Positions 29,140 through 44,098 of a stretch of 44,450 bases of DNA are shown here, piece by piece. Made by a program: the position numbers and the translations under genes. How positions within the stretch are numbered: position 1 is the stretch's first letter; every line of letters starts with the position of its first letter. The stretch is from Escherichia phage vB_EcoP-101101UKE1. The notes below the pieces were generated by a model, which ran no database searches, was not told the origin of the DNA, and saw only the letters and a program-made list of their open reading frames with translations. The stretch lies in the sequence record MZ234012.1. One strand, 5' to 3'.

Positions 29140-32100
29140 ATGGAACAAGACATTAAGACTAATTGGGCTGGATATGTCCAGTCTACTCCTGAGCCGTTTT
29201 CTATTGAGGCGGCTCCGGTATCGGCTCCTACGATACGCCAGCGTAATGAGTTACAAGAGCAAGTTCTTGAAGCTAAAGCTGATGCTGATATCTTAGGTGC
29301 TGTAGGTGCTGCCTTCCAGAATGAGTGGTTGGCATTCGGAGGCAAGCGGTGGTATGACCGTGCCACTGCTGATTTCACACCTCAACCAGACTTCGAGATA
29401 CAACCTGAGCAACGTGAAGCACTACGTTTCAAATATGGTACAGATATGATGCAGACAATCACTGAGGGTGTTCGTTCTGAGGATGAATTGAACTTCCGTA
29501 TTCAGAATGCTGATGAAGACCTTGAGCGCAATAAGCGCATTGCTCAGGCTGGCTGGGTTGGCTCTGTGGCGACGATTGGCGCTGCTGTGCTTGACCCAGT
29601 GGGTTGGGTTGCCTCTATCCCAACTGGCGGTGCAGCCAAAGTCGGCCTCGTAGGTCGTGCCGTGCGTGGCGCTATCGCCGCTGGCGTGAGCAATGCCGCT
29701 ATTGAATCCGTATTGGTCCAAGGTGACATGACTCGTGATTTAGATGACATTATGGTAGCACTAGGTTCCGGTATGGCTATGGGTGGCGTTATTGGCGCTG
29801 TAGCGCGTGGTAGGGCCACTAAGCTCAGTGAGCAAGGGGATGACAGGGCTGCGAGCATTGTGCGCAGTGCAGACGCAGGGGACCGCTATGTGCGTGCTGT
29901 TGCTGATGACAGTATCGGTGCGATGCGTGTTAAGGGCGAAGAGGTACTCACTGAGGGCGCATTTGATATATCTAGTAAAGGCGAAGACTTGCTGAAAACA
30001 TTGCAGAGGGAGGGGAACTCTATTGATATGACCCCTCGCCGCTGGGCCGGAACCATGTCTGCCCTTGGGACTGTCGTGCACTCCTCTCATGATGCTAGTG
30101 TTCGTGGCCTCGGTGCTCGCCTGTTTGAGTCTCCGCAAGGTTTAGGTATGCAAAAGGCATCTGCCAGTCTTATGCAGAATACCAACTTGAATCGACTGAA
30201 GTCTGCTGATATGAACCGTTTCAATGACGGGTTTGACTTATGGCTCAAAGAAAATAATATCAATCCAGTTGCAGGCCATACTAACTCTCACTATGTGCAG
30301 CAATATAATGAGAAGGTATGGGAAGCTGTACGCATCGGTATGGATGAGTCTACGCCTAAGTCTATCCGTATGGCAGCAGAGGGGCAGCAAGCTATGTACC
30401 GAGAAGCCTTAGCTTTAAGGAAGCGCTCCGGTGAAGCTGGCTTTGAAAACATTAAAGCAGATAGTAAGTATATGCCTGATATCTTTGACACTATGAAAGC
30501 TCGCCGTCAATTTGATAGGATAGGAAAGGATATAGATAAAGAAGATATCATTGAGTTATTCTCTCGTGCTTATCAGAACGGCGCTCGTAAAATTCCAAAA
30601 GAAGTAGCGGATGAAATTGCACGAGCACAAGTAAACCGTGTTGTGGATGCCACTCTGACAGGACGTATGAGTTTCGAAAAGGCTATGTCTGGTCAGACTA
30701 AAGCCGAGTATGAAGCAATAATGCGCAAGGCAGGATTCAGTGATGAAGAAATTGAAAAGATGGTAGAAGCTCTGGATAACAAAGAAACCAGAGATAACAT
30801 CTCTAACCGAGCTAAAATGAGTTTAGGACTAGATGTTACTCAAGAATACAATGGTATTCGTATGCGTGACTTCATGAATACCAACGTGGAAGAGCTAACA
30901 GATAACTATATGAAGGAGGCAGCAGGTGGCGCTGCATTGGCCCGTCAAGGATTCTCTACCTATCAGGCTGCACTTAATGCAATTGACCTTGTAGAGCGAA
31001 ATGCACGAAACGCGGCTAAGGATAGCAAGGCTAGCTTAGCACTAGATGAAGAGATTCGTCAAATGCGAGAAGGGCTTCGCTTGATTATGGGTAAATCTAT
31101 CGATGTAGACCCACAGGCTTTGTCTACTAAAATGCTGCGACGTGGTCGTGACATTACAGGTGTACTTCGCTTAGGTCAGATGGGCTTCGCACAGCTAGGC
31201 GAACTTGCTAACTTCATGGGTGAGTTTGGTATTGCTGCAACCACTATAGCTTTAGGTAAGCAATTCCGCTTTACATCTAAGGCTTTGCGGAGCGGTGATG
31301 GCTTCTTTCGAGATAAGAACTTGGCAGAAGTAGAGAGAATGGTAGGTTACATTGGTGAGGATAACTGGCTAACAACCAAGGGTGCACGTCCAGATGAGTT
31401 TGGTGATGTAACCACAGTAAAAGGAATGATGGCTCACTTTGACCAATCCATGAACTCAATACGTCGTGCTCAGACCAACCTATCACTTTTCCGCATGGCG
31501 CAGGGTTCTCTGGAGCGAATGACCAATAGGCAAATAGCTTTGTCTTTCATTGACCACCTTGAAGGCAAGAAGATTATTCCTCAGAAGAAACTGGAGGAAC
31601 TTGGTCTTACTCAGGAGTTCATGACTAATCTACAGAAGCACTATGATGCTAACTCTAAAGGTTCTGGCTTGCTTGGCTTTGATACAATGCCTTATGCCAT
31701 GGGTGAAACTTTAGCTAATGCTATTCGTCGTAAGTCAGGTCTAATTATCCAACGTAACTTCATTGGTGATGAAGGTATCTGGATGAACAAAGCACTAGGT
31801 AAGACATTTGCACAGCTTAAGTCATTCTCTCTTGTATCTGGTGAGAAGCAATTTGGTCGAGGGATTCGCCACGATAAAATCGGTCTTGCTAAGAAGACAG
31901 CTTACGGGTTTGCTTTGGGTTCAATAGTGTATGCGGCAAAAGCCTATGTGAACTCTATTGGGCGAGAAGACCAAGATGAATATTTGGAAGAGAAGTTATC
32001 TCCTAAAGGGTTGGCCTTTGGTGCAATGGGTATGATGAGTACAACTGCTGTATTTAGTCTAGGTGGAGATTTCTTAGGTGGCCTAGGTGTTCTACCTTCT

Positions 32101-32337
32101 GAATTAGTACAATCCCGTTATGAGGCTGGCTTTCAGACTAAGGGTTTGATAGACCAAATACCACTAGTAGGTGTTGGTCAAGATGCATATCGTTTAGCAG
32201 ATTCTATAACTAAATATGCAGAGGGTGATACAGAAGGTGTAGATGTGGCACGTAGGGCTTTACGCTTAGTGCCTCTAACTAATGTAATAGGAATCCAGAA
32301 CGCATTGCGTTATGGCTTAGATGAACTGGAGGATTGA
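29140..32337 (+). CDS. internal virion (core/ejection) protein C
   Basis: 1065 aa, RBS ggagga, in the T7 gp16 position. Confidence 0.7.
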   Translation: MEQDIKTNWAGYVQSTPEPFSIEAAPVSAPTIRQRNELQEQVLEAKADADILGAVGAAFQNEWLAFGGKRWYDRATADFTPQPDFEIQPEQREALRFKYGTDMMQTITEGVRSEDELNFRIQNADEDLERNKRIAQAGWVGSVATIGAAVLDPVGWVASIPTGGAAKVGLVGRAVRGAIAAGVSNAAIESVLVQGDMTRDLDDIMVALGSGMAMGGVIGAVARGRATKLSEQGDDRAASIVRSADAGDRYVRAVADDSIGAMRVKGEEVLTEGAFDISSKGEDLLKTLQREGNSIDMTPRRWAGTMSALGTVVHSSHDASVRGLGARLFESPQGLGMQKASASLMQNTNLNRLKSADMNRFNDGFDLWLKENNINPVAGHTNSHYVQQYNEKVWEAVRIGMDESTPKSIRMAAEGQQAMYREALALRKRSGEAGFENIKADSKYMPDIFDTMKARRQFDRIGKDIDKEDIIELFSRAYQNGARKIPKEVADEIARAQVNRVVDATLTGRMSFEKAMSGQTKAEYEAIMRKAGFSDEEIEKMVEALDNKETRDNISNRAKMSLGLDVTQEYNGIRMRDFMNTNVEELTDNYMKEAAGGAALARQGFSTYQAALNAIDLVERNARNAAKDSKASLALDEEIRQMREGLRLIMGKSIDVDPQALSTKMLRRGRDITGVLRLGQMGFAQLGELANFMGEFGIAATTIALGKQFRFTSKALRSGDGFFRDKNLAEVERMVGYIGEDNWLTTKGARPDEFGDVTTVKGMMAHFDQSMNSIRRAQTNLSLFRMAQGSLERMTNRQIALSFIDHLEGKKIIPQKKLEELGLTQEFMTNLQKHYDANSKGSGLLGFDTMPYAMGETLANAIRRKSGLIIQRNFIGDEGIWMNKALGKTFAQLKSFSLVSGEKQFGRGIRHDKIGLAKKTAYGFALGSIVYAAKAYVNSIGREDQDEYLEEKLSPKGLAFGAMGMMSTTAVFSLGGDFLGGLGVLPSELVQSRYEAGFQTKGLIDQIPLVGVGQDAYRLADSITKYAEGDTEGVDVARRALRLVPLTNVIGIQNALRYGLDELED

Positions 32338-33299
32338 TGAGTTATACTTTCACAGAACATATAGCCAACGGTACGCAAGTAACCTATCCCTTTAGATTTG
32401 CTGGCAGGGATAAAGGCTATCTTCGTGCCTCAGATGTGATAGTGGAATCTCTTCAAGGTAACACTTGGATTGAAGTTACATCTGGCTGGCAACTAACTGG
32501 CACGCACCAGATTACTTTTGATGTAGCACCAGTTGCAGGTTTGAAGTTCCGTATTCGAAGGGAAGTACAAAAGGAGTATCCATACGCTGAGTTTGACCGT
32601 GGTGTTACCTTGGATATGAAGTCTTTAAATGGTTCTTTCATTCATATACTGGAGATTACACAGGAGTTACTTGACGGGTTTTATCCAGAAGGATACTTCA
32701 TTAAACAGAATGTAAGCTGGGGCGGCAATAAGATTACTGATTTGGCTGATGGCACAAATCCTGGAGATGCAGTAAATAAAGGGCAGCTTGATGCCATCGA
32801 CAAGAAGCATACAGATTGGAACGCCAAACAGGACATTGAGATTGCTGGCCTTAAGGCTGGTATGACTTCTGGTATTGCGCACAGAACTGTTCCTTGGTAC
32901 ACGATAGCCAAAGGTGGTGAGATTTCCGTAAAACCACCTTATGAGTTTCAAGATGCACTAGTTTTCCTTAATGGGGTGTTGCAGCACCAAATTGTAGGCG
33001 CATACTCTATAAGCAACAACACTATCACTTTCGCAGAGCCGCTTGTGGCGGGTACAGAGGTGTATGTGCTGATTGGTAGTCGTGTGGCTACATCTGAACC
33101 TAATATTCAGTTAGAGTTGAACTTTGACTTAATAGAAGGCCAACAAGTAGTACAGATTGGCTCTGCATTTAAGTACATTGAGGTCTACCTTGATGGATTA
33201 TTACAACCTAAACTTGCTTACCAGGTAGACGGTGACATTGTTACTTTCTCAGAAAGAGTACCAGAATGCCGGATGACTGCTAAGATTATCACAGCATAA
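32337..33299 (+). CDS. tail fiber-like adaptor protein (T7 gp17 N-terminal-domain-like)
   Basis: ~320 aa, in the gene 17 position before the holin. Too short to be a full fiber, and distal tailspikes are encoded separately at the right end. Confidence 0.6.
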   Translation: MSYTFTEHIANGTQVTYPFRFAGRDKGYLRASDVIVESLQGNTWIEVTSGWQLTGTHQITFDVAPVAGLKFRIRREVQKEYPYAEFDRGVTLDMKSLNGSFIHILEITQELLDGFYPEGYFIKQNVSWGGNKITDLADGTNPGDAVNKGQLDAIDKKHTDWNAKQDIEIAGLKAGMTSGIAHRTVPWYTIAKGGEISVKPPYEFQDALVFLNGVLQHQIVGAYSISNNTITFAEPLVAGTEVYVLIGSRVATSEPNIQLELNFDLIEGQQVVQIGSAFKYIEVYLDGLLQPKLAYQVDGDIVTFSERVPECRMTAKIITA

Positions 33300-33308
33300 G
33301 GAGGTGGG

Positions 33309-33503
33309 ATGATTAACTCCGAACTGGTAGATAGTGGTGTGAAGCTTGCGCCACCTGCACTCGTATCAGGTGGGTACTTCCTCGGTATCAGTTGGGATAA
33401 TTGGGTGTTAATAGCAACATTCATTTATACCGTGTTGCAAATTGGGGACTGGTTTTATAATAAGTTCAAGATTTGGAGGGAGAAGCGTGAGCGTACACAA
33501 TAA
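33309..33503 (+). CDS. class II holin (T7 gp17.5-like)
   Basis: 64 aa. FIYTVLQIGDW resembles T7 gp17.5 IAYTVVQIG. RBS taaggagg. Confidence 0.65.
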   Translation: MINSELVDSGVKLAPPALVSGGYFLGISWDNWVLIATFIYTVLQIGDWFYNKFKIWREKRERTQ

Positions 33504-33786
33504 ACATGCAGCTACAGAGGATGAGGTTGGCATTCTGCATGGTGCTATTACCAAAATCTTCAATAAGAAAGCACAGGCAATACTGGACACTATAGAAGAA
33601 GACCCTGATGCAGCATTACATTTAGTGTCTGGTAAGGATATTGGTGCGATGTGTAAGTGGGTTCTTGATAACGGCATTACCGCCACACCTGCTGCACAGC
33701 AGGAAGAGTCCAAGTTATCTAAGCGCCTCAAGGCTATCCGAGAGGCATCCAGTGGCAAGATTATTCAGTTTACAAAAGAGGAGTGA
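33487..33786 (+). CDS. putative terminase small subunit (assigned by position)
   Basis: GTG start after RBS ggaggg, located between the holin and the HNH/large terminase genes as for T7 gene 18. No motif recognised. Confidence 0.4.
   Translation: MSVHNKHAATEDEVGILHGAITKIFNKKAQAILDTIEEDPDAALHLVSGKDIGAMCKWVLDNGITATPAAQQEESKLSKRLKAIREASSGKIIQFTKEE
33579..33600 (+). promoter_or_regulatory. phage RNAP promoter variant (AATACTGGACACTATAGAAGAA)
   Basis: Core ACTGGACACTATAGAAG is perfect. It lies inside the putative small terminase gene, upstream of the HNH and large terminase genes. Confidence 0.55.
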
Positions 33787-33787
33787 T

Positions 33788-34231
33788 ATGCATAGATGGT
33801 GTGAATCTCAAGGTTATACCATCTTACCTTCTGGTGTCATCCTTTCAAAGGGTGGCACCCCTCTCAAACCATTCAAGGCGGGTAGGGGTTATTTAGCAGT
33901 TAAAATTAAAAATAAAGAAGGTAGATGGCGTAATGTCTATGTTCATCAATTAGTGGCTTATAAGTATTTACCTAAAACTAATAATGAAGTAAACCACAAA
34001 GACGGCGATAAGCACAACAATGATGTTAGCAACTTGGAGTGGGTAACAAGAAGCGAGAATAACTATTTAAAATGCAATGGAAATGATAGGAGTACCTTAA
34101 ATAGCTATTTAGCAAGATTAAAAGATTGCTTCTTGCAAGGTAAGGGTGTAGCAGAAACCGCTAGACTTACTGGTAAAAGTGAACCAAGAGTTTCTTCTCT
34201 CTTTAAGGAGTGGCGAAATGGCAAAGGCTAG
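33788..34231 (+). CDS. HNH homing endonuclease
   Basis: HNH motif VNHKDGDKHNNDVSNLEWVTRSEN. AT-rich compared with its neighbours. Start ATG 33788 with RBS aagaggag; the track ORF opens at 33641. Confidence 0.8.
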   Translation: MHRWCESQGYTILPSGVILSKGGTPLKPFKAGRGYLAVKIKNKEGRWRNVYVHQLVAYKYLPKTNNEVNHKDGDKHNNDVSNLEWVTRSENNYLKCNGNDRSTLNSYLARLKDCFLQGKGVAETARLTGKSEPRVSSLFKEWRNGKG

Positions 34232-36116
34232 AGAATCACAGGCAGAGGCATTAAAGCGGTGGGAAAACCTTAAAGAACTACAAGACACTTTTAAATATAC
34301 AGCGGAAGGTTTGCTTCTCTTTGCAGATACAGTTATTCATAACTTAATTGCAGGCAACCCTCATCTGATTCGTATGCAGGCTGATATCTTGAAGTTCCTA
34401 TTTTACGGACACAAGTACCGCCTCATCGAAGCGCCTCGTGGTATCGCTAAGACAACACTATCAGCAATCTATACGGTATTCCGTATTATTCATGAACCGC
34501 ATAAGCGTATCATGGTTGTGTCCCAAAACGCCAAGCGAGCAGAGGAAATCGCAGGTTGGGTAGTTAAAATCTTCCGTGGCTTAGACTTTCTTGAGTTTAT
34601 GCTGCCGGATATCTACGCTGGGGACCGTGCATCCGTTAAGGCGTTTGAGATTCATTACACCCTACGTGGTAGTGATAAGTCTCCTTCTGTATCCTGTTAC
34701 TCAATCGAAGCAGGTATGCAGGGTGCTCGTGCTGATATTATTCTAGCGGATGACGTAGAGTCGATGCAGAATGCTCGTACGGCAGCGGGCCGTGCCTTGC
34801 TTGAGGAACTGACTAAGGAGTTTGAATCTATCAACCAGTTTGGGGATATCATTTACCTTGGTACACCTCAGAACGTAAACTCTATCTACAACAACCTACC
34901 TGCTCGTGGTTACTCTGTTCGTATCTGGACTGCGCGTTACCCTTCAGTAGAGCAAGAGCAATGTTATGGCGACTTCCTTGCACCTATGATTGTTCAAGAT
35001 ATGAAGGACAACCCAGCACTTCGCTCAGGGTACGGGTTGGATGGTAATAGTGGTGCACCTTGTGCCCCTGAAATGTATGATGATGAAGTCCTGATTGAGA
35101 AGGAAATCTCTCAGGGTGCTGCTAAGTTCCAGCTTCAGTTCATGCTTAACACTCGCATGATGGATGCTGACAGATACCCATTACGCCTGAACAATCTAAT
35201 CTTCACCTCGTTTGGTACAGAGGAAGTCCCTGTGATGCCTACGTGGAGTAATGATTCCATAAACATCATTGGTGATGCACCTAAGTATGGTAACAAGCCT
35301 ACGGATTTCATGTACAGACCTGTAGCTCGCCCATATGAATGGGGCGCTGTCTCCCGCAAGATTATGTATATTGACCCTGCGGGTGGTGGTAAGAACGGAG
35401 ATGAGACGGGTGTAGCCATCGTATTCCTGCACGGCACATTCATTTATGTGTATCAGTGCTTTGGTGTACCTGGCGGATACCGAGAGTCGTCCCTGAATCG
35501 CATTGTGCAAGCCGCAAAGCAGGCGGGTGTTAAAGAGGTATTCATTGAGAAGAACTTTGGTCATGGCGCGTTTGAGGCGGTAATTAAGCCGTACTTTGAA
35601 CGAGAGTGGCCTGTAACTCTGGAAGAGGATTACGCCACCGGACAGAAAGAGTTGCGTATCATTGAGACGCTGGAGCCGCTCATGGCAGCACATAGGCTTA
35701 TCTTCAATGCAGAGATGGTGAAGTCAGACTTTGAGTCGGTACAGCACTATCCGCTTGAACTACGCATGTCCTACAGTCTTTTCAATCAAATGTCGAACAT
35801 AACGATTGAGAAGAACAGCCTCCGGCACGATGACCGCCTAGACGCCCTGTATGGCGCTATACGGCAATTAACTTCTCAGATAGACTATGACGAGGTTACA
35901 CGGATTAATCGCCTCAGAGCGCAGGAGATGCGCGATTACATCCATGCTATGAATACACCTCATTTACGCAGGGCAATGCTATATGGAGATTACGGTACTG
36001 AGCGAAGAGTGACCAACACTTCCGTAGCGATGCAGCAGCGAGTTTACGGGCAGAACTACCGAAATAAATCGGCAAGCAGAAATACACTTTCTGCAAGGAT
36101 TTCAAGGACTTATTAA
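34218..36116 (+). CDS. terminase large subunit (T7 gp19-like)
   Basis: Walker A-like PRGIAKTT and Walker B-like ILADDVE. Probable start ATG 34218 (RBS aaggag); the track ORF opens at 34179. Confidence 0.9.
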   Translation: MAKARESQAEALKRWENLKELQDTFKYTAEGLLLFADTVIHNLIAGNPHLIRMQADILKFLFYGHKYRLIEAPRGIAKTTLSAIYTVFRIIHEPHKRIMVVSQNAKRAEEIAGWVVKIFRGLDFLEFMLPDIYAGDRASVKAFEIHYTLRGSDKSPSVSCYSIEAGMQGARADIILADDVESMQNARTAAGRALLEELTKEFESINQFGDIIYLGTPQNVNSIYNNLPARGYSVRIWTARYPSVEQEQCYGDFLAPMIVQDMKDNPALRSGYGLDGNSGAPCAPEMYDDEVLIEKEISQGAAKFQLQFMLNTRMMDADRYPLRLNNLIFTSFGTEEVPVMPTWSNDSINIIGDAPKYGNKPTDFMYRPVARPYEWGAVSRKIMYIDPAGGGKNGDETGVAIVFLHGTFIYVYQCFGVPGGYRESSLNRIVQAAKQAGVKEVFIEKNFGHGAFEAVIKPYFEREWPVTLEEDYATGQKELRIIETLEPLMAAHRLIFNAEMVKSDFESVQHYPLELRMSYSLFNQMSNITIEKNSLRHDDRLDALYGAIRQLTSQIDYDEVTRINRLRAQEMRDYIHAMNTPHLRRAMLYGDYGTERRVTNTSVAMQQRVYGQNYRNKSASRNTLSARISRTY

Positions 36117-36136
36117 TTACTGGACACTATAGAAGG
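36115..36136 (+). promoter_or_regulatory. phage RNAP promoter (AATTACTGGACACTATAGAAGG)
   Basis: Consensus match, overlapping the terminase stop codon. Confidence 0.75.
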
Positions 36137-36272
36137 AAGGCCCAGATAATAAGAGAAAATAATAGGTAATATATAGGTTAACCTAGGTTATATAGGTATG
36201 CCTTAGTATGGGTGTACTCTGTACACCCTATTCCTTACTACCTTACTATATTTACATAATAGGAGAGAGACA

Positions 36273-36551
36273 ATGGCTAATGATTATAGTAGTCAACCAT
36301 TAACAGGTAAGTCTAAGAGAAAGCAGGTACAACCTGTAAGTGAAGCACTAATGCTTCCGGTAATCTCAAAAGAGGAAGCTAGTAAGAAAATCAATGTTAT
36401 TAATGATGCCACCAAATCAGGTAAACAGAAAGGGGCCATGGTGTGCCTTGAAGTGGAAGATGGCGTATTGAAGATTGCTATCGCGGTTGATGGCAAAGAA
36501 GATTCAGAGTGGAAGTTAGTGACAGTGGAACCAACTGTTACCCCAGTTTAA
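36273..36551 (+). CDS. small protein, paralog 1 (92 aa)
   Basis: RBS ggagagag. Shares SGKQKGAMV...IAVA with the next ORF. Confidence 0.5.
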   Translation: MANDYSSQPLTGKSKRKQVQPVSEALMLPVISKEEASKKINVINDATKSGKQKGAMVCLEVEDGVLKIAIAVDGKEDSEWKLVTVEPTVTPV

Positions 36552-44083: not shown

Positions 44084-44098
44084 CACTATAAGAGAAGG
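44074..44098 (+). promoter_or_regulatory. degenerate phage-promoter-like element (ATTTAGCTGACACTATAAGAGAAGG)
   Basis: Strong resemblance to the consensus but with TATAAGAG in place of TATAGAAG. Confidence 0.3.

Follow-up and report, generated by a model that had tools for sequence, protein, structure and literature searches.

A probable homing endonuclease cassette of the I-HmuI type at the terS/terL boundary of Vectrevirus phages

The window analyzed here is the whole 44,450-nt stretch of Escherichia phage vB_EcoP-101101UKE1 (sequence record MZ234012.1). It is 99.9-100% identical to Escherichia phage vB-Eco-KMB47 of the genus Vectrevirus, in whose record the gene of interest is already annotated "HNH homing endonuclease". 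This gene lies between the genes for the small (terS) and the large (terL) terminase subunit, and the locus comprises the following features:

33309-33503: holin gene, overlapping terS by 17 nt
33487..33786, + strand: terS (small terminase, T7 gp18-like), 99 aa, from GTG 33487 to TGA 33786
33579..33600, + strand: predicted SP6/K1-5-type phage RNA polymerase promoter inside terS, reading AATACTGGACACTATAGAAGAA
33756..33786, + strand: upstream flank with a variable putative co-conversion boundary, the last ~10 terS codons
33778-33783, + strand: Shine-Dalgarno GAGGAG for the HNH gene, within the terS 3' flank
33784-33786, + strand: terS stop
33787..34217, + strand: inserted DNA relative to the empty site, from junction alignments
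33788..34231, + strand: predicted free-standing HNH_3 homing endonuclease gene, 147 aa, ATG 33788, TAG 34229-34231
34205..34210, + strand: Shine-Dalgarno AAGGAG for terL in the 3' end of the HNH ORF, 7 nt before ATG 34218, read from the sequence
34218..36116, + strand: terL (large terminase, T7 gp19-like), 632 aa, start ATG 34218
34218..34297, + strand: recoded 5' block of terL (candidate immunity allele), travelling with the HNH gene

The terS product matches PF11123 (T7-type small terminase/DNA packaging, E=3.6e-16) and the terL product PF22530 (T7 terminase RNaseH-like domain, E=1.5e-35). The terS gene model is that of K1-5 gene 39, with a protein 98-100% identical to those of K1-5, LL11, and EC120, and the identical terS/HNH/terL gene model is found in the annotations of VEc3, AAPEc6, and EC120. 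The original prediction had placed an HNH gene between the two terminase genes with an overlap of 14 nt into terL. These coordinates were verified (HNH stop at 34231, terL ATG at 34218), and the Pfam matches of all three products, including PF13392 for the HNH protein, are in agreement with the gene assignments. In HNH-less phages, the terL Shine-Dalgarno AAGGAGG sits in the terS 3' end instead. The insertion appears "polite", in that the translational coupling from terS via the HNH gene to terL would be kept and a new terL Shine-Dalgarno supplied.

PF13392 (HNH_3) is the sole Pfam match of the HNH protein and spans aa 50-92 (E=2.6e-11, 43.4 bits with a cut-off of 24.8); PHROG_59 'HNH endonuclease' is matched with E=6e-29. 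An N-terminal beta-sheet and a beta-beta-alpha-Me nuclease make up aa 1-96, and a C-terminal three-helix HTH occupies aa 101-143 (34088-34216). The motif residues are N69, H70, N82, and N91, the codons of H70 and N91 being 33995-33997 and 34058-34060, respectively. Among 61 aligned homologues, H70 and N82 do not vary and N91 hardly varies. Position 94 is His in 57 of the 61 but Leu in the lineage at the terS/terL junction (the window, P0001, and P0002), and the activity of the enzyme could thus be altered. The aligned residue of I-HmuI is Asn, likewise not His. Leu94 is also present in a 58%-identical orthologue on an SP6-like contig and is therefore old, which is compatible with persistence of the gene.

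A structural model of the protein was built with AF2 from the 61-sequence MSA (pLDDT 92.4); it superseded a single-sequence AlphaFold model that was unusable with a pLDDT of 39.7. Foldseek against the PDB returned I-HmuI (1U3E) as the only significant match (E=2.7e-6, TM 0.56, probability 1.00), with weak HTH matches only for the C-terminal helices, and I-HmuI was likewise the only significant match of a PDB sequence search (E=6.9e-6). The protein contains no CxxC and three Cys in total (positions 5, 96, and 114). From sequence and model, its architecture is predicted to be I-HmuI-like, composed of an HNH_3 nuclease and a C-terminal HTH. An Rfam scan of 33000-35000 matched no family, group I introns included, and the gene is thus regarded as free-standing.

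The AT-richness noted in the original prediction is confirmed by the composition of the insert. The insert-only DNA (430 nt) has a GC content of 37.7% compared to 45.1% in the window; only 0.8% of windows of this size are as GC-poor, and the lowest GC value of the genome (36.3%) is located inside the HNH gene. GC3 amounts to 33% in the HNH gene versus 48% in terL. By these measures, the gene is compositionally foreign. It is intact and under purifying selection, with a dN/dS of 0.12-0.18 across three diverged alleles and an uninterrupted ORF in 17 of 17 records. The Logan contig L021 carries a copy with two 1-nt deletions; both are located in A-runs and may be assembly errors, so they were not counted as decay.

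All 17 of these public phage records have the HNH gene at the terS/terL junction, with 90-100% identity at the protein level. Among the matches listed, K1-5 and at least 20 further close relatives lack it. HNH-less phages include, besides K1-5, LL11, EEc2/4, Sem1-4, KMB14, G9, CrRp3, ULINTec6/7, and P433.1, as well as PSK8, SHAK7163, NTNC80A, and 6949. Because most close relatives do without it, the HNH gene is dispensable. In the empty site of K1-5, the terS stop and the terL start overlap by 1 nt as TGATG, and the terS and terL starts are 299 nt apart versus 731 nt in the window, so that the locus here exceeds that of K1-5 by 432 nt. Correspondingly, the alignments of HNH-less records break into two pieces and span 1069 nt versus 1501 nt. 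Thus, the gene is neither found in all relatives nor matched to its surroundings in composition. The KMB47 paper makes no mention of the HNH gene, and 'extra HNH endonucleases' in a relative of K1-5 are all that a 2026 preprint reports.

The difference between HNH-carrying and HNH-less phages extends beyond the insert. Of 21 fixed differences between the two groups, 20 are located at 34223-34294, within 77 nt of the terL start region, and position 33783 is the sole one upstream. Compared to K1-5, 20 of 28 codons in this block are changed, by 15 synonymous changes and five replacements (A13K, M17N, Q19K, Q23D, and P26K) in the TerL N-terminus; four of the five are changes to charged residues. 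Divergence between the groups is 28% in the block and 5-7% in the remaining terL. For KMB47 and K1-5, terL is 0.3% diverged over 1.2 kb past the block, and the window is 99.7% identical to HNH-less K1-5 from 34300 to 35500. Over the recoded stretch, identity to K1-5 is 65.5% for the block versus 77.4% for SP6, a member of a different genus. GC3 of the block is 33%, like that of the HNH gene.

A blastn search with word size 11 and the 83-nt block as query recovered the recoded block in exactly the 17 HNH-carrying records and nowhere else, and found no donor lineage for it. Since the first ~77 nt of terL are included, the mobile unit is larger than the HNH ORF. The recoded block is a candidate immunity allele, i.e., it may represent a diverged recognition or cleavage region, and we infer the location of the HNH target site solely from its position. 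In the SP6-like contig L019, the 58%-identical HNH orthologue is located beside a terL start of ordinary protein sequence, and thus a strongly recoded block is not universal in this homing endonuclease family.

On the upstream side, an alignment of the junctions of nine HNH-carrying and nine other genomes reveals boundaries that differ between genomes. Variants of the cassette type reach back to 33756 in KMB47, EC120, T147P9, LI10P5, and PDP21P6, but start later in VEc3 and Mt1B1_P10 (about 33763) and in AAPEc6 (about 33769), while PhiNW-E1 is of the HNH-less type up to the terS stop. Among seven HNH-carrying genomes, the HNH DNA is 0-0.5% diverged and the adjacent terL is up to 6-7% apart; for several of the seven, the nearest terL relatives are HNH-less phages. 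Near-identical cassettes on such backgrounds indicate a recent spread, faster than the divergence of the flanks. Related arrangements are seen at this and the adjacent junction: mutPK1A2 contains a 44%-identical HNH at the terS/terL junction, and EC120, ULINTec4, and 6948 contain a related HNH at the adjacent holin/terS junction. Together with the orthologue in the SP6-like contig, these genes mark the junctions as recurrent landing sites for homing endonuclease genes.

The locus thus displays a homing signature: a diverged target-side allele is linked to the gene, co-conversion tracts vary in extent, and one cassette occurs on different backgrounds. With a probability of roughly 80%, we interpret it as a free-standing I-HmuI-like HNH homing endonuclease cassette at the terS/terL boundary that spreads by intronless homing in Vectrevirus (K1-5-like, T7 supergroup). 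The horizontal acquisition suggested in the original prediction is supported by sporadic presence, deviant composition, and the linked recoded terL block, and its choice left open between a selfish insertion and a packaging helper is clearly decided by the comparison in favour of the selfish reading, as the gene is present in 17 records at one site and absent from K1-5 and at least 20 relatives.

According to this interpretation, upon co-infection with an HNH-less relative the enzyme would be transcribed late, from upstream promoters including the pre-existing one in terS, and its translation would be coupled to terS. It would then bind and nick or cut the HNH-less genome at or near the terL start, and the break would be repaired by recombination with the HNH-carrying genome as template. 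Repair would copy in the HNH gene and the recoded beginning of terL, together with a terS 3' tract of varying length, and because of the recoded block, the genome of the carrier itself would be a poor substrate for the enzyme. PMC2988022 reviews free-standing endonucleases along with marker exclusion and co-conversion, and PMC2790892 describes MobE as an HNH example. In principle, the complete linkage could also stem from a single ancient acquisition whose flanks then recombined, rather than from repeated active homing.

Another reading holds that the cassette entered once, is now inert or weakly active, and owes its spread to ordinary homologous recombination; with the terL ribosome-binding site located in the HNH 3' end, it would be unlikely to be lost precisely and would therefore persist. 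Consistent with this, both the Shine-Dalgarno and the start of terL lie inside the HNH ORF, the nearly invariant His94 is replaced by Leu, Vectrevirus genomes are visibly mosaic hereabouts, and an HNH gene at the same site, that of mutPK1A2 and regarded as unrelated, is split into two ORFs. The contig copy with two deletions would fit as well, but for the possible assembly errors in its A-runs. However, the dN/dS and the intact ORF in all 17 records argue for continuing selection on the protein, the Leu94 replacement is shared with the 58%-identical orthologue and thus old, and the near-identity of cassettes contrasts with the divergence of their backgrounds. We therefore consider an inert remnant unlikely.

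The linkage between the HNH gene and the TerL N-terminus might alternatively reflect co-adaptation at the protein level, where an I-HmuI-type enzyme without His94 came to assist a T7-type terminase by nicking or binding DNA. We regard this as quite improbable; if true, HNH-terminase cooperation would have arisen a second time, independently, in a phage without cos packaging.

Still less probable is a role as packaging cofactor, where the HNH protein aids the terminase in genome maturation like HK97 gp74, the cos-site HNH endonucleases, and Skunavirus HrdP. The gene does adjoin both terminase genes and is translationally chained to them, it is completely linked to a TerL variant with five N-terminal substitutions, and terminase-adjacent HNH genes are needed for packaging in some cos phages (PMC3592412, PMC12967558). 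Yet most close relatives lack the gene, including the type phage K1-5 with a terL 99.7% identical beyond the first 80 nt, whereas hrdP is 'highly conserved' in Skunavirus. Furthermore, the protein belongs to a different HNH subfamily (PF13392 as sole Pfam match, I-HmuI-like fold, [CxxC]2 zinc site absent), the terminase is of the T7 type by PF11123 and PF22530 and not of the HK97/cos type, and an SP6-like phage has an orthologous HNH beside an unaltered TerL N-terminus.

The promoter-like element that the original prediction had located at 33579..33600 in the small-subunit gene stood up to scrutiny. Its core ACACTATAG occurs at 11 sites in the window, all on the + strand, compared to 0.46 expected from shuffles, and 0 of 100 shuffles reached 11 sites; the 22-mer has four relatives within 3 mismatches, with 0 expected. 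From -12 to +6 it equals the consensus exactly, and only its AT-rich upstream end sets it apart from the remaining ten sites (CAATAC versus ATTTAC/AATTAC). By the SP6 promoter convention, +1 is predicted at G33595. Across 18 genomes, no variation is seen at six successive third-codon positions (33582-33597), compared to 59% variable third positions in terS (hypergeometric P~0.004, for related sequences and with a longer invariant run elsewhere in terS). SP6 DNA, checked directly, has no promoter in terS. A scan of 32300-36400 for sigma-70 promoters and terminators returned nothing above shuffle expectation; PMC4837284 gives sigma-70 predictions only.

This element lies about 190 nt before the HNH start, closer to the HNH gene and terL than any other upstream phage promoter. 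It might thus be thought to have arrived with the HNH gene or to have evolved for it, but this is refuted by the identical 22-mer in HNH-less K1-5 and LL11 and by the core kept in 18 of 18 Vectrevirus loci examined. Being shared with HNH-less Vectrevirus, it predates the insert and is unconnected with the insertion, and it would normally serve terL.

As such, the HNH cassette is an ordinary finding, a tidy example of a selfish "homing" gene that raises no new question. For the T7 supergroup, it offers a clear natural case of a homing endonuclease gene that is free-standing, and its practical value is modest. The limits of the mobile unit can be set with nucleotide precision (HNH ORF plus the recoded 77-nt terL start), which yields a concrete candidate target site. 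In phage-therapy cocktails of Vectrevirus, mixed infections of HNH-carrying and HNH-less phages should bias inheritance of the terS/terL region. For annotation, terminase proximity alone is no ground for naming an HNH protein a packaging factor.

Among known systems, I-HmuI of Bacillus phage SPO1 (PDB 1U3E) shares the Pfam family HNH_3 and the layout of an N-terminal beta-sheet, an 'H-N-N' beta-beta-alpha-Me nuclease, and a C-terminal helical/HTH DNA-binding part. Its residues H75, N87, and N96 align with H70, N82, and N91, although identity is only ~27% and the metal-binding Asp74 corresponds to N69 here. The I-HmuI gene resides within a group I intron in a DNA polymerase gene, while the HNH gene described here is free-standing between two genes. 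The nicking activity of I-HmuI is reportedly known from experiment (Shen et al. 2004), whereas any such activity of the present protein is putative.

The genetic arrangement resembles that of the T-even endonucleases MobE, SegF, and SegG (HNH/GIY-YIG), which likewise are free-standing between conserved genes, occur sporadically among relatives, and co-convert flanking markers. For these, cleavage is expected in the neighbouring essential gene of endonuclease-less phages (PMC2988022, PMC2790892). They belong to another phage group, as opposed to the T7 supergroup and Molineuxvirinae in the present case, and T4 cleavage sites can be hundreds of bp off, whereas the diverged block directly adjoins the insertion here.

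In HK97 gp74, the cos zinc-ribbon HNH, and Skunavirus HrdP, an HNH-superfamily nuclease gene likewise adjoins the terminase genes. These genes are conserved and, in the cases tested, essential in siphophages of the cos type (PMC3592412, PMC12967558), and the cos-associated enzymes carry a [CxxC]2 zinc site (PMC3592412). Unlike them, the present gene is dispensable in nature, is of the HNH_3/I-HmuI type without CxxC, and resides in a T7-type phage.

Further counterparts are other HNH_3 genes at late-gene junctions of Molineuxvirinae, namely mutPK1A2 p49/p50, the holin/terS insert of EC120, ULINTec4, 6948, K1E, and ACG-C91, and the gene on L019. These show 34-58% identity, encode ~143-147 aa, and are located at the same or the adjacent junction, but represent different alleles. 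In mutPK1A2, nuclease and HTH are encoded by separate ORFs of the split HNH gene, and the terL start stays K1-5-type. The EC120-type insert is found at the preceding junction, where it is the holin C-terminus that is recoded.

Over approximately 1.5 kb around the HNH gene, the window matches Escherichia phage vB-Eco-KMB47 (OR424385.1) at 100% identity, a K1-5-like member of the genus Vectrevirus (Molineuxvirinae, Autographiviridae), and its first 25 kb share 99.9% identity with the same record. The window start, with an ATG at position 1, is offset by about 1908 nt from the KMB47 record, and no terminal redundancy was found between the window ends (1 versus 44450); the window appears to be a near-identical genome that has been rotated or trimmed. 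The KMB47 record already labels the ORF 'HNH homing endonuclease', and the paper describing this phage leaves the gene undiscussed. The local gene order is as follows.

29140-32337: gp16-like internal virion protein
32334-33299: tail-fibre adaptor (PF03906, T7 tail fibre N-terminal)
33309-33503: class II holin (PF10746)
33487-33786, + strand: small terminase gene, terS (PF11123)
33788-34231, + strand: HNH ORF (PF13392)
34218-36116, + strand: large terminase gene, terL (PF22530)

The HNH ORF, which had been proposed from the sequence alone, runs from ATG 33788 to TAG 34231 (147 aa) and was confirmed by matches to Pfam HNH_3 (E=2.6e-11, far over threshold) and PHROG_59 (E=6e-29). The anticipated 14-nt overlap with terL (ATG 34218) was likewise recovered, and the annotations of VEc3, AAPEc6, and EC120 independently give the identical HNH/terL gene model. 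The gene is AT-rich as described: the insert has a GC content of 37.7% versus 45.1% for the window, ranks in the bottom 0.8% among equal-sized windows, and contains the genome-wide GC minimum.

At 90-100% identity, the HNH protein occurs in 17 records of the phage collection, every one a Vectrevirus with the gene at the terS/terL junction, while the next-best protein matches reach at most 43% identity and lie at different loci. Among the matches listed, the gene is missing from at least 21 close relatives, some phages being counted twice as GenBank and RefSeq records: K1-5, LL11, EEc2, EEc4, Sem1-4, KMB14, G9, CrRp3, ULINTec6/7, P433.1, PSK8, SHAK7163, NTNC80A, and 6949. Their alignments to the query are broken into two segments, which span 1069 nt rather than 1501 nt. 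Their empty site is TGATG, an overlap of the terS stop with the terL start; occupation of the site adds 432 nt. The original prediction had left selfish insertion and assistance in packaging undecided; this distribution supports the former.

The putative mobile unit extends beyond the HNH ORF. An alignment of nine HNH-carrying loci and nine others revealed 21 positions with no base common to both sets, 20 of which lie at 34223-34294, within the initial 77 nt of terL; only 33783 lies outside. Divergence between the sets amounts to 28% in the first 100 nt of terL versus 5-7% in the rest; inside the HNH-carrying group it is approximately 1-2% in these 100 nt, roughly 1-8% in individual 50-nt bins as far as 35170, and higher further downstream. 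KMB47 and the HNH-less K1-5 differ by just 0.3% over 34300-35500. In this recoded block (34218-34297), 20 of the first 28 terL codons are changed, 15 synonymously and five by replacement (A13K, M17N, Q19K, Q23D, P26K), with an AT-rich codon choice like that of the HNH gene (GC3 33%; terL 48%). Over this stretch the block is 65.5% identical to K1-5, and SP6, a member of another genus, 77.4%. A sensitive search matched exactly the 17 HNH-carrying records and found the block in no others. The linked tract upstream is short, and its endpoint varies between genomes.

Ends of the upstream tract in HNH-carrying genomes
33756: KMB47, EC120, T147P9, LI10P5, PDP21P6
about 33763: VEc3, Mt1B1_P10
about 33769: AAPEc6
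no tract: PhiNW-E1

In seven genomes the HNH DNA is 0-0.5% diverged, with adjacent terL diverged by up to 6-7%, and the closest terL relatives of several of these seven are HNH-less phages, namely K1-5 for KMB47, VEc3, EC120, and AAPEc6, and ULINTec6 for LI10P5 and T147P9. Therefore, one cassette resides on several backgrounds. We infer four steps of spread: the enzyme would recognise genomes without the HNH gene and nick or cut them at the start of terL or close to it; the HNH gene would be copied in during repair; the recoded block would be co-converted on every occasion, because a recipient retaining the old sequence would stay cleavable; and the carrier would be protected by this block. 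The insertion keeps its essential neighbour expressed. The terS stop is separated by 1 nt from the HNH ATG, which is preceded by a GAGGAG Shine-Dalgarno sequence (33778-33783), and AAGGAG (34205-34210) lies within the HNH 3' end, 7 nt upstream of the terL ATG.

The promoter-like element noted inside terS (33579-33600) proved to be one of 11 sites containing ACACTATAG, all on the + strand versus 0.46 expected (window 3716, 6017, 6708, 10958, 11421, 12567, 15720, 20923, 33587, 36124, and 37791). The consensus common to these phage-RNAP promoter cores is ATTTACTGGACACTATAGAAGAG. One promoter begins at the terL stop codon (36116-36137), and weaker variants occur at 44084 and 44431, close to the window end. 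The terS promoter is a genuine sequence element without connection to the insertion: the 22-mer is unchanged in the HNH-less K1-5 and LL11. Its core is invariant in 18 of 18 Vectrevirus loci, six consecutive third-codon positions included, where 59% of third positions vary across terS; since these loci are close relatives, the invariance is suggestive and falls short of decisive. SP6 terS has no corresponding site. The promoter presumably adds late transcription for terL and now also for the HNH gene; no sigma-70 promoter or terminator signals above chance were found in the region.

The terS/terL and neighbouring late-gene junctions are recurrent landing sites of HNH_3 genes. At the same junction, mutPK1A2 (L002:1994-2424) carries a different, 44% identical HNH that is split in two: a nuclease ORF of 110 aa overlaps an HTH ORF of 37 aa, and their sum of 147 aa equals the length of the window's HNH protein. 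This split HNH occurs in that phage only, upstream of a K1-5-type terL start. This junction also holds a 58%-identical orthologue in a 45-kb, SP6-like contig from metagenomic data. Between the holin gene and terS, an unannotated 143-aa HNH_3 ORF is present in EC120 (L003:1798-2229), ULINTec4 (L010:~2500-2930), and 6948, with a recoded, longer holin C-terminus (74 versus 64 aa) and a TTG start of terS; thus, EC120 has HNH genes flanking terS on both sides. Relatives (77% DNA identity) are present in this holin region in ACG-C91, where the copy adjoining the holin is annotated as HNH endonuclease, and in K1E.

Two Logan contigs show further variants. In the SP6-like SRR35867463_28995 (L020:2700-3460), about 650 nt interrupt terL exactly at the nuclease motif YIDPAG|GGKNGDETG. 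They include an ORF of 177 aa whose N-terminus is GIY-YIG-like (…GYIGVT…REH…); either an intron or a homing endonuclease has probably inserted here, in the region of the terminase active site. In ERR4564195_3579 (L021:4001-4743), a KMB47-type cassette has two single-A deletions in A-runs (window 33774 and 33908), which join terS to the N-terminus of HNH and leave HNH truncated; they could be true decay or assembly error.

The sole solved sequence relative of the protein is I-HmuI (1U3E, E=6.9e-6), also the only significant PDB fold match (E=2.7e-6, probability 1.00, TM 0.56) of a confident AlphaFold model (pLDDT 92.4) built on a 61-sequence alignment of database homologues. I-HmuI, an HNH homing endonuclease of phage SPO1, is intron-encoded, whereas an Rfam scan of the HNH region gave zero family matches, group I introns included. 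Invariant in the alignment are Y35, H53, H70, D72, N77, N82, L83, E84, and W85, with N69 and N91 close to invariant; H70/N82/N91 pair with I-HmuI H75/N87/N96. Residues 101-143 form three C-terminal helices with weak HTH-type matches. Codon 94 (34067-34069) encodes Leu, where 57 of the 61 homologues have His; Leu94 is restricted to the junction-resident lineage (the window, the protein cluster P0001, and 58%-identical P0002). This residue would suit a stranded, inactive gene, which is nevertheless unlikely given the recent spread and the purifying selection on HNH, with dN/dS of 0.12-0.18 from three diverged alleles (KMB47, AAPEc6, PhiNW-E1); the ORF is intact in 17 of 17 records.

Because of Leu94, inactivity is still somewhat likelier than a packaging cofactor working with the adjacent terminase, a very improbable role: passages in PMC3592412 and PMC12967558 describe terminase-adjacent HNH proteins as required for packaging in HK97-like cos phages and Skunavirus and conserved within their own phage groups, and a passage in PMC3592412 assigns [CxxC]2 zinc sites to the cos-site enzymes, whereas the window's HNH gene is naturally dispensable, its protein sequence has no CxxC motif and belongs to the I-HmuI subfamily, and its partner terminase is T7-type. 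From the comparative evidence, we regard the element as a well-delimited yet ordinary, previously uncharacterised cassette of a putative free-standing homing endonuclease, whose features fit spread via intronless homing or marker exclusion, the route established for seg and mob genes of T4 (PMC2988022, PMC2790892).
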